Shown in pieces: positions 43,913 through 64,000 of a stretch of DNA of 64,000 bases. Where the stretch lies: positions 4,032,001-4,096,000 of the forward strand of contig OZ244799.1 in NCBI GenBank assembly GCA_965219955.1. Reading direction: 5' to 3'. The notes below the pieces were generated by a model. That model was not told the origin of the DNA. It saw nothing but the letters and a program-made list of their open reading frames with translations, and searched no databases. Origin of the DNA: a bacterium (GTDB taxonomy: Bacteria; UBA8248). The position numbers were made by a program, and so were the translations under genes. The stretch's first letter is position 1. Every line of letters starts with the position of its first letter.

Positions 43913-44004
43913 TGGCGGAGAGAGAGGGATTCGAACCCTCGAGGCCGGTTTCCCAGCCTACTCGCTTAGCAGGCGAGCGCCTTCAGCCACTCGGCCATCT
44001 CTCC
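43913..44004 (-). tRNA. tRNA-Ser(GCT)
   Basis: GGAGAGATGGCCGAGTGG...CTGCTAA...long variable arm...GGTTCGAATCC...CCA. Confidence 0.95.
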
Positions 44005-54376: not shown

Positions 54377-54462
54377 TGGCGGAGGGAGAGGGATTCGAAC
54401 CCCCGGAGCTTTCGCTCAGTGGTTTTCAAGACCACCGCCTTCGGCCGCTCGGCCATCCCTCC
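54377..54462 (-). tRNA. tRNA-Ser(TGA)
   Basis: GGAGGGATGGCCGAGCGG...GTGGT-CTTGAAA-ACCAC...GGTTCGAATCC...CCA. Confidence 0.95.
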
Positions 54463-58415: not shown

Positions 58416-59705
58416 ATGTATGACATGCGCTTGAAATTCATGGTGTTAATCGTTTCCATGTTCCTTTTCGCGCTCCCGGCGTTTTCCCGGAAGACATCAA
58501 AAAGCTTCTTCTTTCCCTCCGTTCAAGCTTCGGAAAAAAAAGGGATTCCCGGAAAATGGAAGCATTGGCGGGATTTCGTGAACGATCACTTCCGCTATCC
58601 ATTGCCTCCCATGGGCGAGGCGCCGAAATCATACAAGGGCGCCGAACGCTCCCTTTCGCCGGAGCGTTGCGGCAGCTGCCATCCCGAGCAGTACAAACAG
58701 TGGAGAACCACGCTTCACGCCAGGGCGATGAGTCCGGGCGTATACGGACAGCTCGTCGATATGTGGAAGGCGAATCCCGGGGGAGCGCAAAGCTGCAACG
58801 AGTGCCACGCGCCCTTGGCGGAACAGCAAAAGCGCGCGAATTTCGGCGCGGGCCCTCCGGCGAACTGGCGGAAAAACCCGGTCCACGACCGAAAACTGGA
58901 GATGAGTGGGCTGGTCTGCGCCTCATGCCATGTGCGCGATTGGCGTGTACATGGCCCCCGGAAGAAAGAGACCCCCGAAGGCATGGATGATACGACAGGC
59001 AATGGCCCGCATGGTGGTGTGGAGCGCACGCTTTTCTTCAGCCGCTCTGAATTTTGCACGGGTTGTCACCAGCACACGTTTCCCGGGCCGAACGGGAAAT
59101 CGATTCAGAATACCTACAACGAGTGGAAAAACTCGCTTTGGGGGGAGGAGGGCGTCTCCTGCCAGAGTTGTCACATGCCCGACCGGGCGCATCTGTGGCG
59201 GGGCATACATGACAAGGAGATGACGCAGAGCGCCGTGCAAGTCGACGTTTCGCTGGGAGCGGAAGCGCGCGGGGAAATCGTGACGGCCGTGATCAAGCTC
59301 ACGAACTCGGGCGCCGGCCATTATTTTCCCACCTACATCACGCCCTCGGTGGACGTCATCTCCGAACTTGAGGACAAGACCGGGCGAACCATTCCGGGTT
59401 CAAGGCAGATCAACGTAATTGAGCGGAAGCTCTCGCCCGATTTCAGCCGTGAAATCCATGACACGCGCATTCCCCCCCAAGAATCCATCACGTTCCGGTA
59501 CAGGAGGGGACGAGGCGAAGGAGCCGCCAGGCTCAGGGTGCGCGTTCACGTGCGGCCCGATGCGTTTTATTACAATTTCTTCATGGAATTTCTCAAAAAC
59601 CCTGCCATCTCGAGCCTGTCGCGGGAGCTCATCGAGCAGGCGAGAGACATCGCGGCGTCATCGGACTTTGACATTTATGACGAGAAATTCGAACTGAAAA
59701 ACTAG
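58416..59705 (+). CDS. Multiheme c-type cytochrome (five CxxCH, c554-like N-terminus)
   Basis: CGSCH, CNECH, CASCH, CTGCH, CQSCH; signal-like N-terminus; GAGHYFPT; start uncertain. Confidence 0.9.
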   Translation: MYDMRLKFMVLIVSMFLFALPAFSRKTSKSFFFPSVQASEKKGIPGKWKHWRDFVNDHFRYPLPPMGEAPKSYKGAERSLSPERCGSCHPEQYKQWRTTLHARAMSPGVYGQLVDMWKANPGGAQSCNECHAPLAEQQKRANFGAGPPANWRKNPVHDRKLEMSGLVCASCHVRDWRVHGPRKKETPEGMDDTTGNGPHGGVERTLFFSRSEFCTGCHQHTFPGPNGKSIQNTYNEWKNSLWGEEGVSCQSCHMPDRAHLWRGIHDKEMTQSAVQVDVSLGAEARGEIVTAVIKLTNSGAGHYFPTYITPSVDVISELEDKTGRTIPGSRQINVIERKLSPDFSREIHDTRIPPQESITFRYRRGRGEGAARLRVRVHVRPDAFYYNFFMEFLKNPAISSLSRELIEQARDIAASSDFDIYDEKFELKN

Positions 59706-62029
59706 GAAATCGATCCGGCGGCGCTCTTTTCGCGCACCGCGCGCACGACGTCCTCCGGCGCAATCGGCAACGTGTTGAGGTTCTGGTTTGCCGGGTCCCC
59801 GATGGCGTCCGCTATCGCGTTCGCAATCGCGGGCGCCGCCGGAATGAGCGGCATCTCTCCCGCCCCCTTGGCCCCGTAGGGGCCTTCCACGTCGGGCGAT
59901 TCCACGATCACGCTTGCAATTTCCGAGACGTCCAGACTCGTGGGGTTGAGTTGACTCTCGAAATCCGCGTGGGCGATGAGGCCCTCTTCGTGGTGGATCT
60001 GCTCGGCGAGGGCCCAGCCCAGCCCCTGTGCGATGCCGCCCTCTATCTGTCCGTTCAGGGTGAGGGGGTTCATGGCGAAGCCCACGTCCTGCGCGCTGGT
60101 GATTTTCACCACCCTGGTTTCTCCTGTCTCGGTGTCGACTTCTACCTCGGCGATTTGGGTGGCGAATTCGGGCCCGGGCCTCGAGGGTTCCGGGTGGCCG
60201 CGCACGTTGTCCGTCCGGTGGGGGGGATTCTCTCCGCGGTAGGAGCCGCGCCCGGTCACGGGGCCGTCGCCTTTCCATACGGCCGAATGCGCCACATCGG
60301 TGAACGCGATGGCGCGCGATGGCGCCGCGCGGACGAATATGTTTCCCTCGCCTATCTCCAAGTCTTCCGGGGAGGATTCGAGCATGCGCGCCGCCTGGCG
60401 AAGCATTTGTTCGCGGGCGTCTTCCGCCGCCATGCGCACGGCGTGCGCCATGTTGAACGTGGTCCGGCTCCCCGCGGAGATGGCGTCGAAGGGCGTGGCT
60501 TCGGTGTCGGCGATGCGGACGCTCACCTTTTGGACCTCGGCTCCAAGAACCTCCGCCGCCACCTGCGCCATCACGGTAGCCGCGCCCGTACCGAGGTCGG
60601 CGCATCCGGCCAGCACGGCCAGGCCCCCGTCCTCGTTCACCTTGACCACGGCGCCCGACGCTCCCCCGCCCGTGGGATAGCGTGCGCAGCCGATGCCCAT
60701 CCCCCGCCTGATTCTGCCATTCCGGTTTTCTTTTTTCTGCTTCCCCCAGCCCGCTTTCTTGCCCGCGCGCTCGAGCGTTTCCTTGATGCTTACGCTCTGC
60801 AGAATCGTGCCTGCGGGGTCCTCATCGTTTTCATCCATCCCGTTGAGGATTCGAAAGGCGAGCGGGTCCATTTCCAGTTCCGAGGCGATGCGGTCGGTAT
60901 GGCGTTCGCAGGCGAAAGCGACCTGCGCAACGCCCAATCCCCGGTAGGAGCCGCTGGGCGGAAGGTTCGTATACACGAGCAGACCGTCCACCCGGACGTT
61001 AGGAATCTTGTATGGTCCCGCGCTGGTGTAGCAGGATTTGCCCAGCACCATCGGCCCCGTCATGCAGTAGGCGCCGTTGTTCGATGTGATTTGTATGTGG
61101 CGCGCAATGATTTTCCCCTCCCGCGTCACACCCGTGCGATAGCGCATGCGGTAAGCGTGCCTCGGGTTTCCGGTGATGGTTTCCTCCTCGCGGTTGAGCG
61201 TCAGTTGAACGGGCCGGTTCGACTTTCTGCTCAAAAGTACGGCCAGGGCTTCCATCAGATGTTGGGATTTGCCGCCGAAAGCGCCGCCCACATGGGTGCT
61301 CACGACGCGCAGTTTGTTCATGGGGAGTTCGAGAATTTCCGAGGCGATGGCGCGCACCACGAAAGCCCCCTGGGTGGGCGAATAGACTATCGTGCTGTCC
61401 TCGGGTCCCGGCTCTGCGAGCATGGCGCGGGGCTCGAGATAGTTCTGGTGAACGCGGGGGGTTTCGTATTCGTCCTCGAATACGAAATCCGCGCGCGCGA
61501 GCGCGGCTTCGATGGGATCGCCCGAGCGAATGAGAATATCGGCGGCCACGTTCCCGTAGCGCACGATGCCCGGATATGATGCGTAATCATCCAGCGTGTC
61601 ATGCAGCAGTGGCGCGTCGTCCTTCGTGGCGTCATCCGTCGTGAAAACGGCGGGGAGCACCTTGTAATCGACATGAATTTTCTCGATTGCTGCTTGCGCG
61701 GCTTCGGGGGTTTCGGCGGCCACGGCCGCCACGCGTTCGCCGACGTAAAGCACCTTGTCGATGGCGAGCAGCGGTTCATCGCGCACGAGCCTGCCGTGGC
61801 GGATGCCGGAAAAATCATCCGCGGTGACGACGGCGTGTACGCCGGGAACCTTCAAGGCGTCTGTGGTGTCGATTTTCTTGATCTCGGCGTGGGGGTGCGA
61901 GCTCAGGAGCAATTTCGCGGTGAGGCAGCCGTGCCTCCTTAAGTCATCGCCGAAGTCGGCGAGTCCTGAGACCTTCTCTGCGGAGTCGAGTCTCGGTATG
62001 GATTTGCCCAGAACCTGATATTCAGACAT
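59702..62029 (-). CDS. Xanthine dehydrogenase-family molybdopterin-binding large subunit
   Basis: SSHPHA, HQNYLEP, GGAFGGK, SYRGLG, AGSR, GQIEGGIAQGLG, GAKGAGE. Confidence 0.93.
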   Translation of the reverse strand: MSEYQVLGKSIPRLDSAEKVSGLADFGDDLRRHGCLTAKLLLSSHPHAEIKKIDTTDALKVPGVHAVVTADDFSGIRHGRLVRDEPLLAIDKVLYVGERVAAVAAETPEAAQAAIEKIHVDYKVLPAVFTTDDATKDDAPLLHDTLDDYASYPGIVRYGNVAADILIRSGDPIEAALARADFVFEDEYETPRVHQNYLEPRAMLAEPGPEDSTIVYSPTQGAFVVRAIASEILELPMNKLRVVSTHVGGAFGGKSQHLMEALAVLLSRKSNRPVQLTLNREEETITGNPRHAYRMRYRTGVTREGKIIARHIQITSNNGAYCMTGPMVLGKSCYTSAGPYKIPNVRVDGLLVYTNLPPSGSYRGLGVAQVAFACERHTDRIASELEMDPLAFRILNGMDENDEDPAGTILQSVSIKETLERAGKKAGWGKQKKENRNGRIRRGMGIGCARYPTGGGASGAVVKVNEDGGLAVLAGCADLGTGAATVMAQVAAEVLGAEVQKVSVRIADTEATPFDAISAGSRTTFNMAHAVRMAAEDAREQMLRQAARMLESSPEDLEIGEGNIFVRAAPSRAIAFTDVAHSAVWKGDGPVTGRGSYRGENPPHRTDNVRGHPEPSRPGPEFATQIAEVEVDTETGETRVVKITSAQDVGFAMNPLTLNGQIEGGIAQGLGWALAEQIHHEEGLIAHADFESQLNPTSLDVSEIASVIVESPDVEGPYGAKGAGEMPLIPAAPAIANAIADAIGDPANQNLNTLPIAPEDVVRAVREKSAAGSIS

Positions 62030-62105
62030 TTGCGCCCTCATCATGACGTTCAAGACATTATCGTTTCTTGACGAGTCCTCGATCACGAAATTGGCATATT
62101 TGAGT

Positions 62106-62849
62106 TTATCTTACTTCCAGCTTTTCCAAAAAGCCGCGTATCCGCCTGGCGTTCTCGCCGATATCGCCGACGCCGACGCGGGACTTCGAGCGGATGTCGA
62201 GGCGCGTTTTTCCGCTGCTCGACGTGATCCGTATGACGATATCGTCGATGAAGCCGTACCAGAAAGTCGTGTCATAGGCCTCGATGCGTCCTTCGGTCGG
62301 TTTGGACGACACCACATGCCAGCCCATGGCGTTCGCGGCGTCCCGGGCGCGCTTGAAAACTTCTTCTTTTGAAGTCTGGAAAGTAAGTGGTTTGATATCC
62401 GGATATGCTTTTTCCTGGAGCCGCGCGATGCGCGCCCCCCCGTAGGCGGGCGGGTTCTTCGCCCCTGTCCTGAGCGGGAGAACGGCCTGAAAGACGGGCG
62501 GGTTTCGGGTGTCCGTCGTGATGTCGTGAATCTTGGGCACCCGTCTCGCGATCTGCATGTGCGCGTGTAGAAAGCCCGCAACGATGAAGCCGAGTGCGAT
62601 GCCGAGCGCGGCGGCCAGCGTCTTGCGCCTGGAGGCGTCTCGCAAGGCGAACAGGCCACCCGCCATGGAGACGGCCACGGAGAGCAGCGCGATGACGGAT
62701 GCCGCCTTGAAAATCTGGAACCCCGTGCTGAAATGCCACAGCTCCCAGCGATGGCCCAGCCCCGACGCCACGGCGGCCAGCGCGCAGACGCCCGATATGA
62801 ACAGGCCCAGATACGAGATGGATGAGAGAACGCTTGATTTATTGGCCAC
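62106..62849 (-). CDS. DUF1499 domain membrane protein
   Basis: IHDITTD...PP.F, YPDIKPL, GRIEA..TT..YGF.DD..IR, DIRSKSRVG.GD.GENARRI. Confidence 0.88.
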   Translation of the reverse strand: MANKSSVLSSISYLGLFISGVCALAAVASGLGHRWELWHFSTGFQIFKAASVIALLSVAVSMAGGLFALRDASRRKTLAAALGIALGFIVAGFLHAHMQIARRVPKIHDITTDTRNPPVFQAVLPLRTGAKNPPAYGGARIARLQEKAYPDIKPLTFQTSKEEVFKRARDAANAMGWHVVSSKPTEGRIEAYDTTFWYGFIDDIVIRITSSSGKTRLDIRSKSRVGVGDIGENARRIRGFLEKLEVR

Positions 62850-63441
62850 GGATCTTCTTTTTCAACCTCTCGATGGCGGCCTGCAACTCCCCGGGTCCTT
62901 CGGGATTCTGCTCCACGTGCCCGAAGGCGTAGTTGATCGTGTTGGCGAAGTTTCTGTAGACAGCGGCGGCGATGATGTCCACGACGTTCTCCTCGCTGAA
63001 GCCGGCGGCCCGCAGACTTTCGATGTCCGTTTTTTCCATCGAGTGAGGCGTGTGAGTGATCTTCTCCGCATAGGCGAGCATGGCGCGGTCCGCTTGGTCG
63101 AGGATTCCCGCTCGCGTCGGGTCGTCCAGCACCTCGGCTACTTCGGCGATGGAGGCGTCATCGCATTCGTCACGGAACAACTGCCCGTGGTTCATCGCTC
63201 AGCCGTATCACCCCCCGTGAGCCGCCACGTAAAAAGCGAGCAACTCCGCCCGCCTCGTGCCGAGGCTCGAGCCGCCATGAACCGCTCCACGGAGCGTTTC
63301 ACGCCCGGCCAGAATATCGGGCCTCCTGCCCATCTCGAGAAACATCCTGGGAATGGGTTTTCTCGCCTCCCGCAGACCTTCGACAATTTCTTTTGTCGCT
63401 CCCTCCGCGGCATCCGGAGAAATGGGTCGAATCCAGCTCAT
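62839..63441 (-). CDS. AhpD/peroxidase-related protein with double selenocysteine U-Y-G-U (TGA at 63208-63210 and 63199-63201)
   Basis: ORFs 63208-63441 and 62839-63195 are in frame: RRAELLAFYVAAHGG-U-YG-U-AMNH; C-terminal AMLAYAEKITHTPH..DIESLRAAGFSE. Confidence 0.82.
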
Positions 63442-63633
63442 GTCGTCCTCCTTTGATAATCGTGGAAGAGGTTCTCAAGCACAGGAGAATTGCGCAAGAG
63501 AGACGCTCGAAATCTTTGAATGTTTCCTCGTATAGATGAAAGGGTTCCTAAAGATGGATTGCCGTTGCCTATCATGATGCTCGTGCTTCATTATCAACCT
63601 CGTAGTTTCGTTCTTGATTGATCGGGGGACGCC

Positions 63634-64000
63634 ATGAAATTCGACCTGTCGCTGATCGTCATCACCGACCGGGAGATATTGTCCCGGGCTTCCGGATGGA
63701 AGCTGAGGGACGCGGTTCGCGCAGCCGCGGCGAACGGAGCCGGCACGATCCAGCTTCGAGAGAAAAACTTGAGCGGCGTGGAAATGATTCGCCTGGCGGA
63801 TGAGTTGCGAGAGGCTCTGGAGGGAACCGGCTGCGCTTTTACGGTGAACGATCGGGTGGACGTCGCCATGGCCTGCGGCGCGGACGGGGTGCATCTGGGA
63901 CAGGAGGATTTTCCGCTTCCGAGGGCCAGGGAGATGGCGGGAGATGCGTTGTTTTATGGCGTGACGGCCGGGAAATCCGAATGGGCGTCGCGGGCCGCCG
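63634..64000 (+). CDS. thiE: Thiamine-phosphate synthase (runs off the window end)
   Basis: LIVITDR, IQLREK, VNDRVDVAMACGADGVHLGQED. Confidence 0.93.
   Translation, partial: MKFDLSLIVITDREILSRASGWKLRDAVRAAAANGAGTIQLREKNLSGVEMIRLADELREALEGTGCAFTVNDRVDVAMACGADGVHLGQEDFPLPRAREMAGDALFYGVTAGKSEWASRAA

Follow-up and report, generated by a model that had tools for sequence, protein, structure and literature searches.

Can both redox cysteines of an AhpD-like protein be encoded by UGA, and can a single RNA hairpin serve two such codons that lie 9 nucleotides (nt) apart? The question is raised by a gene on the minus strand, at 62839..63441, of a 64,000-nt stretch of bacterial DNA (GTDB lineage UBA8248; GenBank assembly GCA_965219955.1, contig OZ244799.1, positions 4,032,001 to 4,096,000), the whole of which is referred to here as the window. 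Judged from its sequence and that of its relatives, this is most likely a functional AhpD-like selenoprotein gene, in which both redox cysteines of the pattern E-x11-C-x-x-C-x3-H are UGA-encoded and read as selenocysteine (Sec, U). The gene and its product are called UYGU here, after the motif that results.

The UYGU gene, its family and its conservation

The elements on which the argument depends are the following, given in window coordinates:

62839..63441, minus strand: AhpD-like gene with U78 and U81, 200 codons plus a TAA stop, in the frame read with TGA as U, matching TIGR01926 and CMD
63439-63441, minus strand: ATG start of this gene, read from the sequence
62839-62841, minus strand: its TAA stop, read from the sequence
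63447-63452, minus strand: its Shine-Dalgarno sequence AGGAGG, read from the sequence, with a 5-nt spacer to the ATG
63208-63210, minus strand: UGA1, codon 78, which replaces the first Cys of CxxC and is TGA in 24 of 24 orthologues
63199-63201, minus strand: UGA2, codon 81, at the second Cys of CxxC, the usual Sec site of the CxxU family
63171-63189, minus strand: candidate selenocysteine insertion sequence (SECIS) hairpin, CACGGGCAGTTGTTCCGTG, 9 nt 3' of UGA2 and 18 nt 3' of UGA1
63169-63213, minus strand: codons 77-91, with the lowest synonymous variation in the gene, covering both UGAs and the hairpin

Under translation table 11 the frame is cut into open reading frames (ORFs) of 77 and 118 amino acids (aa), which reading TGA as U joins into a protein of 200 aa with the motif context YVAAHGG-U-Y-G-U-AMNHGQLFR (codons 78 and 81 being U). 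The initial annotation, made from the letters of the window, had described two in-frame TGAs on the minus strand, a single 200-aa AhpD-like protein with a strong ribosome-binding site, a stem-loop beginning 9 nt downstream of the second of them and 18 nt downstream of the first, and a gene that standard gene callers would split, and on all of these points it was right. The database entries for the gene bear out the last of them, all 24 matches being C-terminal pieces of 117-118 aa, of which the two named entries are both called 'hypothetical protein'. The whole gene is also spanned by an antisense open frame of 307 codons (window 62533-63456, plus strand), a shadow frame of the kind common in G+C-rich coding sequence and no gene candidate.

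For profile scoring, U was written as C. The protein matches TIGR01926 (peroxidase-related enzyme) with 86.9 bits against a curated cut-off of 81.8, residues 2-178 covering profile positions 1-176 of 178, and the Pfam family CMD (PF02627) with 24 bits against a cut-off of 23; the scores for NF041238 (AhpD_rel_CFYUT, 22.4 vs 175) and NF053654 (YciW-related (seleno)protein, 28.8 vs 310) are below the curated cut-offs. The nearest solved structure by sequence is D. radiodurans AhpD (6k40; phmmer against the PDB, E = 1.7e-15), whose N-R-C-V-Y-C-A-V-S-H-G aligns exactly with H-G-G-U-Y-G-U-A-M-N-H-G; the two TGAs thereby fall on the cysteines of a solved protein, at the CxxC of the AhpD/CMD family where they had been placed. 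An AlphaFold model built from 27 relatives (mean pLDDT 95) is all-helical, with ten helices, and U78 is predicted immediately before helix 79-92. Its best Foldseek match is again 6k40 (TMq 0.70, E = 2.8e-07, 25% identity), followed by 2prr, 3c1l, the debrominase Bmp8 and S. pneumoniae AhpD; the roughly 30 top PDB matches are all AhpD/CMD proteins, and M. tuberculosis AhpD is a weak fold match only (E about 0.05). Judging from these profiles and from the predicted fold, the gene product is a member of the largely uncharacterised family TIGR01926, in the CMD superfamily, with the all-helical fold of AhpD.

Residues around the motif follow the same pattern. The columns of C/U78, C/U81 and H85 are invariant in an alignment of 27 sequences, so that the conserved His expected after the motif is indeed there. 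The conserved Glu expected before it was found in most sequences (Glu66), but not in all, since three sequences of the related genus g2 have Q at this position and carry E at 65. In comparison with Cys-type AhpD proteins (6k40; M. tuberculosis 1knc/1gu9/1lw1), the all-helical AhpD/CMD fold is common to both, as are the motif at a helix start, the His at the fourth residue past the second Cys and the Glu 12 residues ahead of the first Cys/Sec, this last in most members; the Cys-type proteins, however, have two Cys that form a disulfide, whereas here the two positions are UGA-encoded.

The comparison set consisted of 51 genomes of the class, the window's own genome being counted in its genus. 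Double-TGA matches were found in 24 of them (19 of 23 in the genus, the single genome of genus g3 and 4 of the 5 of g2), with 53-96% identity to the window protein, and each of the 24 has the U-Y-G-U motif. Alignment with homologues, which had been proposed as a check, gave Cys or TGA at both motif positions and never Trp, and the position of UGA2 is TGA in all 46 Sec-form sequences (24 UYGU and 22 CxxU tree rows). Moreover, contigs from two DNA metagenomes of two studies cover both TGAs with no differing letter at 63199-63210, and the same is true of a 483-nt contig from an RNA library (62792-63274), although these contigs show 8-16 differences from the window elsewhere. The contig from the RNA library hints at transcription without proving it; RNA-library cover is absent at 63275 onward (X16) and at 63070-63245 (X17), and is uninformative there. 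When 185,579 species, with one genome per species, were scanned for the exact pattern, the motif DNA occurred in 22 stretches, 7 of them labelled as metagenome-assembled genomes of Nitrospinota or Nitrospinaceae and 15 just as 'bacterium', and the UYGU form of the AhpD-like protein appears confined to one lineage.

The double-TGA pattern is common by itself: two in-frame TGAs at most 5 codons apart, with at least 60 open codons on each side, occur at 451 places in a scan of this whole 61% G+C genome, and these are mostly chance. Because the bare pattern is so frequent, and because the local fold is about as stable as that of shuffled sequences, the argument has to come from homology and conservation: the TGAs align with the CxxC of a solved AhpD and persist in 24 genomes, and it is this that sets the site apart from chance occurrences. 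Another motif-like TGA-x-x-TGA, at C1:4238689, was rejected as intergenic DNA before a gene starting MKITEAAADKVKEIMEQNGG, labelled NifU/HesB-like by the look of its sequence alone.

Decoding of the two UGA codons

The genome carries all four of the genes selA, selB, selC and selD, for which the initial annotation had advised a search: selB was found, as were selA (578 bits), selD (332.7 bits, with one in-frame TGA of its own) and one tRNA-SeC with anticodon tca (ARAGORN; 75.9 bits on Rfam RF01852). TGA is the commonest stop, ending 1055 of 1980 open frames of at least 400 codons, and some orthologues of the UYGU gene themselves terminate with it; thus, TGA is not generally reassigned in this genome. 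The selD gene (G000:C1:2942487-2943449) is itself that of a selenoprotein, with the motif K-A-G-G-U-G-S-K, and a hairpin GGUCC-GGA-GGACC begins 12 nt past its UGA.

Counted from the U of UGA2, the hairpin of the UYGU gene occupies nt 13-31, with the G-U of its loop at 21-22; counted from UGA1, this G-U lies at 30-31. The minimal SECIS of E. coli fdhF extends over nt 15-31, with G23 and U24, and lies 11 nt from the UGA (PMC8659212). The spacing is near-canonical for UGA2, as in CxxU members. The stem CACGG(G/A)...(U)CCGUG forms in all 24 UYGU sequences, complete with six pairs in all but one, which has five, and the apical loop (A-G-U-U in the genus, G-G-U-C in g2 and g3) always includes G-U. 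RNAalifold, applied to the 19 distinct UYGU sequences, gave this hairpin as the sole consensus structure between -3 and +60 of UGA1. Distant CxxU relatives have a stronger hairpin (8-9 pairs, loop G-U-U) in the identical register after their single UGA, over the residues H-G-E-F-L-C as against H-G-Q-L-F-R here, while two Cys-form relatives are without a hairpin in that register.

Constraint on synonymous sites points to the same stretch. Among the 19 genus orthologues the mean pairwise synonymous difference is 0.06 in codons 77-91 vs 0.265 gene-wide, and the ten 9-codon windows of lowest synonymous variation all begin at codons 77-87. Two codons that are rare in this genome, CGT with 14% of Arg codons and TTG with 9% of Leu codons, are invariant in the stretch. 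Furthermore, codon 86 is only GGG or GGA, both pairing with U, while nearby glycines are also GGC and GGT, and codon 91 begins with G in every sequence, a base that pairs with the first C of the stem, even as its residue varies between D, V, A and G; the base preferences of both codons fit base pairing. One-sided changes from G-U to A-U are present in 7 of the 19 UYGU sequences, and over 41 sequences of the family 78.4% of cells are paired, as compared with 29.9-53.4% for slid partners.

Several observations nevertheless weigh against a functional gene with two Sec codons served by this hairpin. The covariation across homologues that had been suggested as a test yielded no compensatory signal above shuffles: none of the six stem pairs shows a compensatory change in the UYGU clade (19 sequences), and in the 41 family sequences the observed pairing percentage is reached by 226 of 500 shuffles, and the 2 pairs with double-sided change by 62 of 500. 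The 76-nt stretch folds no more stably than shuffles (z = +1.43), and protein constraint explains part of the conservation of the stem, because much of the stem coincides with the codons of the conserved N-H-G and F-R. The hairpin begins 18 nt after UGA1, 7 nt more than the E. coli spacing, so decoding of UGA1 assumes extra tolerance, and the RNA-library contig may derive from DNA in that library. Finally, 4 of the 23 genomes of the genus are without the UYGU gene, one of them retaining only a C-terminal remnant (the last ~85 codons, 78% identical, between DUF1499 and thiE; G010:C4:126636-127890 and G010:C5:835962-836216); its absence from these genomes makes the gene dispensable, and it is being lost in part of the genus.

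Since covariation gave no compensatory signal and stability by itself is uninformative, the assignment of the hairpin rests on its position, on the synonymous constraint and on the one-sided changes, and with these the hairpin at 63171-63189 is likely the SECIS of the UYGU gene. A second candidate, hairpin 'B', 21 nt after UGA2, which is predicted in C-Y-G-U paralogues, was rejected for this gene as not conserved, with a mean of 3.8 of 6 pairs in the UYGU clade and about -0.6 kcal/mol. Rfam gave no family match within 62600-63700, and a promoter and terminator scan gave nothing above shuffled expectation.

The alternative that survives best concerns UGA1. In it, only UGA2 would be Sec, and UGA1 would be read as Cys by a SelB-dependent tRNA of the tRNA-ReC type, or as Trp, Cys or Arg by near-cognate decoding, the product being effectively of CxxU or WxxU type. 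The 18 nt that separate UGA1 from the hairpin, where the E. coli rule gives 11 nt (PMC8659212), speak for it, and so does the enrichment of tRNA-ReC-like genes in the genomes that encode UXXU hydrogenases, in which one UGA or both may accordingly be decoded as Cys (PMC13582414). However, ARAGORN gave only one tRNA-SeC and one ordinary 75-nt tRNA-Cys (gca), and RF01852 a single match above the cut-off, the weaker ones being Leu, Ser and Tyr tRNAs; a second selC-like gene was found in the genome by neither. Moreover, codon 78 is TGA in 24 of 24 orthologues at a synonymous divergence (dS) of about 0.6 and has in none of them gone back to TGC, TGT or TGG; so strict a retention means that the product likely differs from Cys or Trp. 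The bSECISearch model reportedly allows 16-37 nt between UGA and loop, a range that includes the spacing from UGA1. With these points taken together, a non-Sec reading of UGA1 seems unlikely.

If both codons are read as Sec, SelB and Sec-tRNA-Sec on the single hairpin would recode UGA2 at near-canonical spacing, and the same SelB-bound hairpin would also recode UGA1, 9 nt further upstream; this is the economical reading for UGA1, because no separate conserved structure was found for it. In M. tuberculosis AhpD the corresponding residues are Glu118, Cys130, Cys133 and His137, with attack by Cys133 and resolution by Cys130. If the UYGU protein works alike, U81 would attack and U78 resolve, and the oxidised enzyme would hold an intramolecular diselenide where the CxxU relatives would hold a selenenylsulfide; such an enzyme would require a strong reductant. 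Decoding of both UGAs as Sec through one SECIS is the most likely case, and its outcome would be a selenol/diselenide reductase of the AhpD type. For the whole of this proposal, an AhpD-fold enzyme that cycles through a diselenide and takes both Sec from one hairpin at UGAs 9 nt apart, the balance tips slightly in favour. Were it true, the geometry of SelB, SECIS and ribosome in this lineage would tolerate a window of at least 9 nt, the cells would own a reductant able to turn over a Se-Se centre of very low potential, and the C-Y-G-U paralogue in the same genome, described below, would make a natural one-atom experiment on the benefit of the second selenium.

Selection on the two halves of the gene

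Another possibility is that the TGAs are true stops, in a pseudogene or in a pair of genes for separate proteins of 77 aa and 118 aa. Table 11 yields exactly these two ORFs, the databases carry just the 117-118 aa piece, and the gene is absent or a remnant in 4 of the 23 genomes of the genus. Selection nevertheless argues otherwise. In the 19 genus orthologues, the median ratio of nonsynonymous to synonymous divergence (dN/dS) is 0.132 for codons 1-77 and 0.175 for codons 92-198 (median dS ~0.6), as compared with 1.4-1.6 in the +1 frame of the same DNA, used as control. Purifying selection acts on each half in the same frame, in which both are therefore translated. Codon 83, the ATG from which gene callers start the 118-aa piece, is GTC, GTA or ATT in g2 and g3, none of them a start codon there, and the C-terminal half thus has no conserved start of its own. 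Furthermore, neither stop is ever TAA or TAG instead of TGA, and both stand exactly on the catalytic Cys positions; the Cys-containing relatives are single proteins of 170-185 aa; and the joined protein is predicted to fold as one AhpD domain, with a pLDDT of 95. A dead or split gene is, on this evidence, highly improbable.

An error of assembly or sequencing, or a nonsense mutation confined to this one strain, which the initial annotation had named as a way for its reading to fail, has no point in its favour and can be dismissed as practically negligible, because identical TGAs recur in 23 other genomes, the 24 in all belonging to three genera, and in independent contigs from three other runs, each of a different study, whose sequences depart from the window at other positions.

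Relatives, origin and neighbourhood

A paralogue with the motif C-Y-G-U and one TGA lies in the same genome (G000:C1:740180-740752) and has a counterpart in most of the related genomes. It is 49% identical to the UYGU protein, of equal length, and has in common with it the centre G-G-x-Y-G-U-x-x-N-H-G, but its first motif codon is TGC/TGT where the UYGU gene has TGA, and the hairpin that it has in the common register, with 5 pairs and a 9-nt loop, is weaker. A second hairpin, GCUUUC-CGUGCU-GAAAGC, 12 nt further 3', is predicted in some C-Y-G-U members, though not in those of the low-GC genus g22. More distant relatives in the class, about 25-37% identical, read C-x-Y-U, and two relatives read C-x-x-C.

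In a maximum-likelihood tree of 48 rows, for which U was written as C to remove the signal of the trait itself, all 24 UxxU rows group together in a single clade (SH-aLRT 99), sister to the C-Y-G-U rows, and the joint clade of 35 rows (SH-aLRT 99) lies among CxxU rows. The simplest history suggested by these sequences is that the UYGU form would have arisen once, by one duplication followed by one change from TGC/TGT to TGA. It has been retained through the divergence of three genera, in one family of marine or sponge-associated bacteria.

As far as the portions of the literature at hand extend, the AhpD-like family is among the most abundant selenoprotein families of marine samples, with 299 GOS sequences of CxxU form (PMC2398784), and the 'AhpD-like protein, TIGR01926/COG2128' is tabled as CxxU (PMC9312934, 2022; PMC13188914, 2026), with one Sec in the table of 2026 (PMC13188914). 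The UxxU entries of these two reviews are a Prx-like thiol:disulfide oxidoreductase, the NF041115 metal-binding protein and an FmdB-family protein only (PMC9312934, PMC13188914). UxxU sequences have also been described in Prx-like 2 (PMC2398784) and in group 4 [NiFeSe] hydrogenases, for which one downstream SECIS was proposed for both UGAs (PMC13582414), and the diselenide of SelL and its very low potential are on record as well (PMC2397514). BSepDB counts bacteria of the GTDB phylum UBA8248 (labelled Nitrospinota or Nitrospinae), with 48-54 selenoprotein genes, as some of the most selenoprotein-rich (PMC13326102). A UxxU form of the AhpD-like protein is absent from the available portions of PMC13188914, PMC9312934, PMC2398784 and PMC13582414, their supplements and the entries of BSepDB lying outside this comparison, and the deep-Sep paper (PMC12013277) makes no mention of AhpD, UxxU or Nitrospin.

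The UYGU protein is of the same family by hidden Markov model as the CxxU AhpD-like proteins (COG2128 YciW-type; GOS 'AhpD-like 1'), with the same fold, the same position of U81 and the same hairpin register, and its clade is nested within CxxU members; it differs in that the codon of the first Cys is UGA as well. What it has in common with SelL/Prx-like 2, NF041115, FmdB and the group 4 hydrogenases is a pair of Sec two residues apart in place of CxxC. These families, however, have thioredoxin-like, HMA, zinc-ribbon and hydrogenase large-subunit folds, whereas the fold here is the helical one of AhpD/CMD, and their roles partly differ, for example as metal ligands. In particular, SelL has the UxxU motif in common with the UYGU protein but is thioredoxin-like, and the UYGU protein falls outside the SelL family; it may work like SelL without being a member. 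For bacterial SelL, a single SECIS serving two UGAs was reportedly described by Shchedrina et al. in PNAS in 2007. The UxxU motif and the idea of a single SECIS are already published for other families, so that the UYGU form extends them and adds no new principle. A known family with one Sec here has a variant with two, which is mis-annotated and confined to a single bacterial family.

For annotation, this means that an abundant redox protein of these bacteria, which are rich in selenoproteins, is missing from proteomes because its gene is cut, and catalogues gain a UxxU form (single origin, 24 species) in a family tabled as CxxU. As regards mechanism, the gene offers a natural case of how far upstream of a bacterial SECIS a UGA is recodable, with the CxxU paralogue of the same cell as an internal control for the two-Sec gene, and the small soluble protein suits work on the chemistry of a diselenide in a non-thioredoxin fold.

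Two genes follow the UYGU gene on the same strand:

62106-62849, minus strand: DUF1499 membrane protein (PF07386, 88.4 bits), the directly downstream neighbour
59702-62086, minus strand: molybdopterin hydroxylase large subunit (aldehyde oxidase / xanthine dehydrogenase type), after the DUF1499 gene

The listed GTG start of the DUF1499 gene overlaps the end of the AhpD-like gene (62106-62849 vs 62839), and the two are therefore probably co-transcribed; the gene for thiamine-phosphate synthase (thiE) lies upstream and is divergent. The order AhpD-like gene, DUF1499, hydroxylase is found in 19 of 19 loci of the genus, and the DUF1499 gene also follows in the single g3 locus. A functional link between the three genes is possible, but its support does not reach beyond the genus and g3. 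The three g2 loci examined have, in place of DUF1499, an unnamed membrane-protein ORF of ~255-265 aa after the gene, and no gene for AhpC, thioredoxin reductase or a lipoamide protein adjoins the AhpD-like gene. The neighbourhood was rejected as a clue to function on account of the different follower in g2, and no partner can be claimed. Elsewhere in the window, the minus strand carries two tRNA-Ser genes, with anticodons gct and tga, at 43913-44004 and 54377-54462 (genome coordinates 4075913-4076004 and 4086377-4086462).

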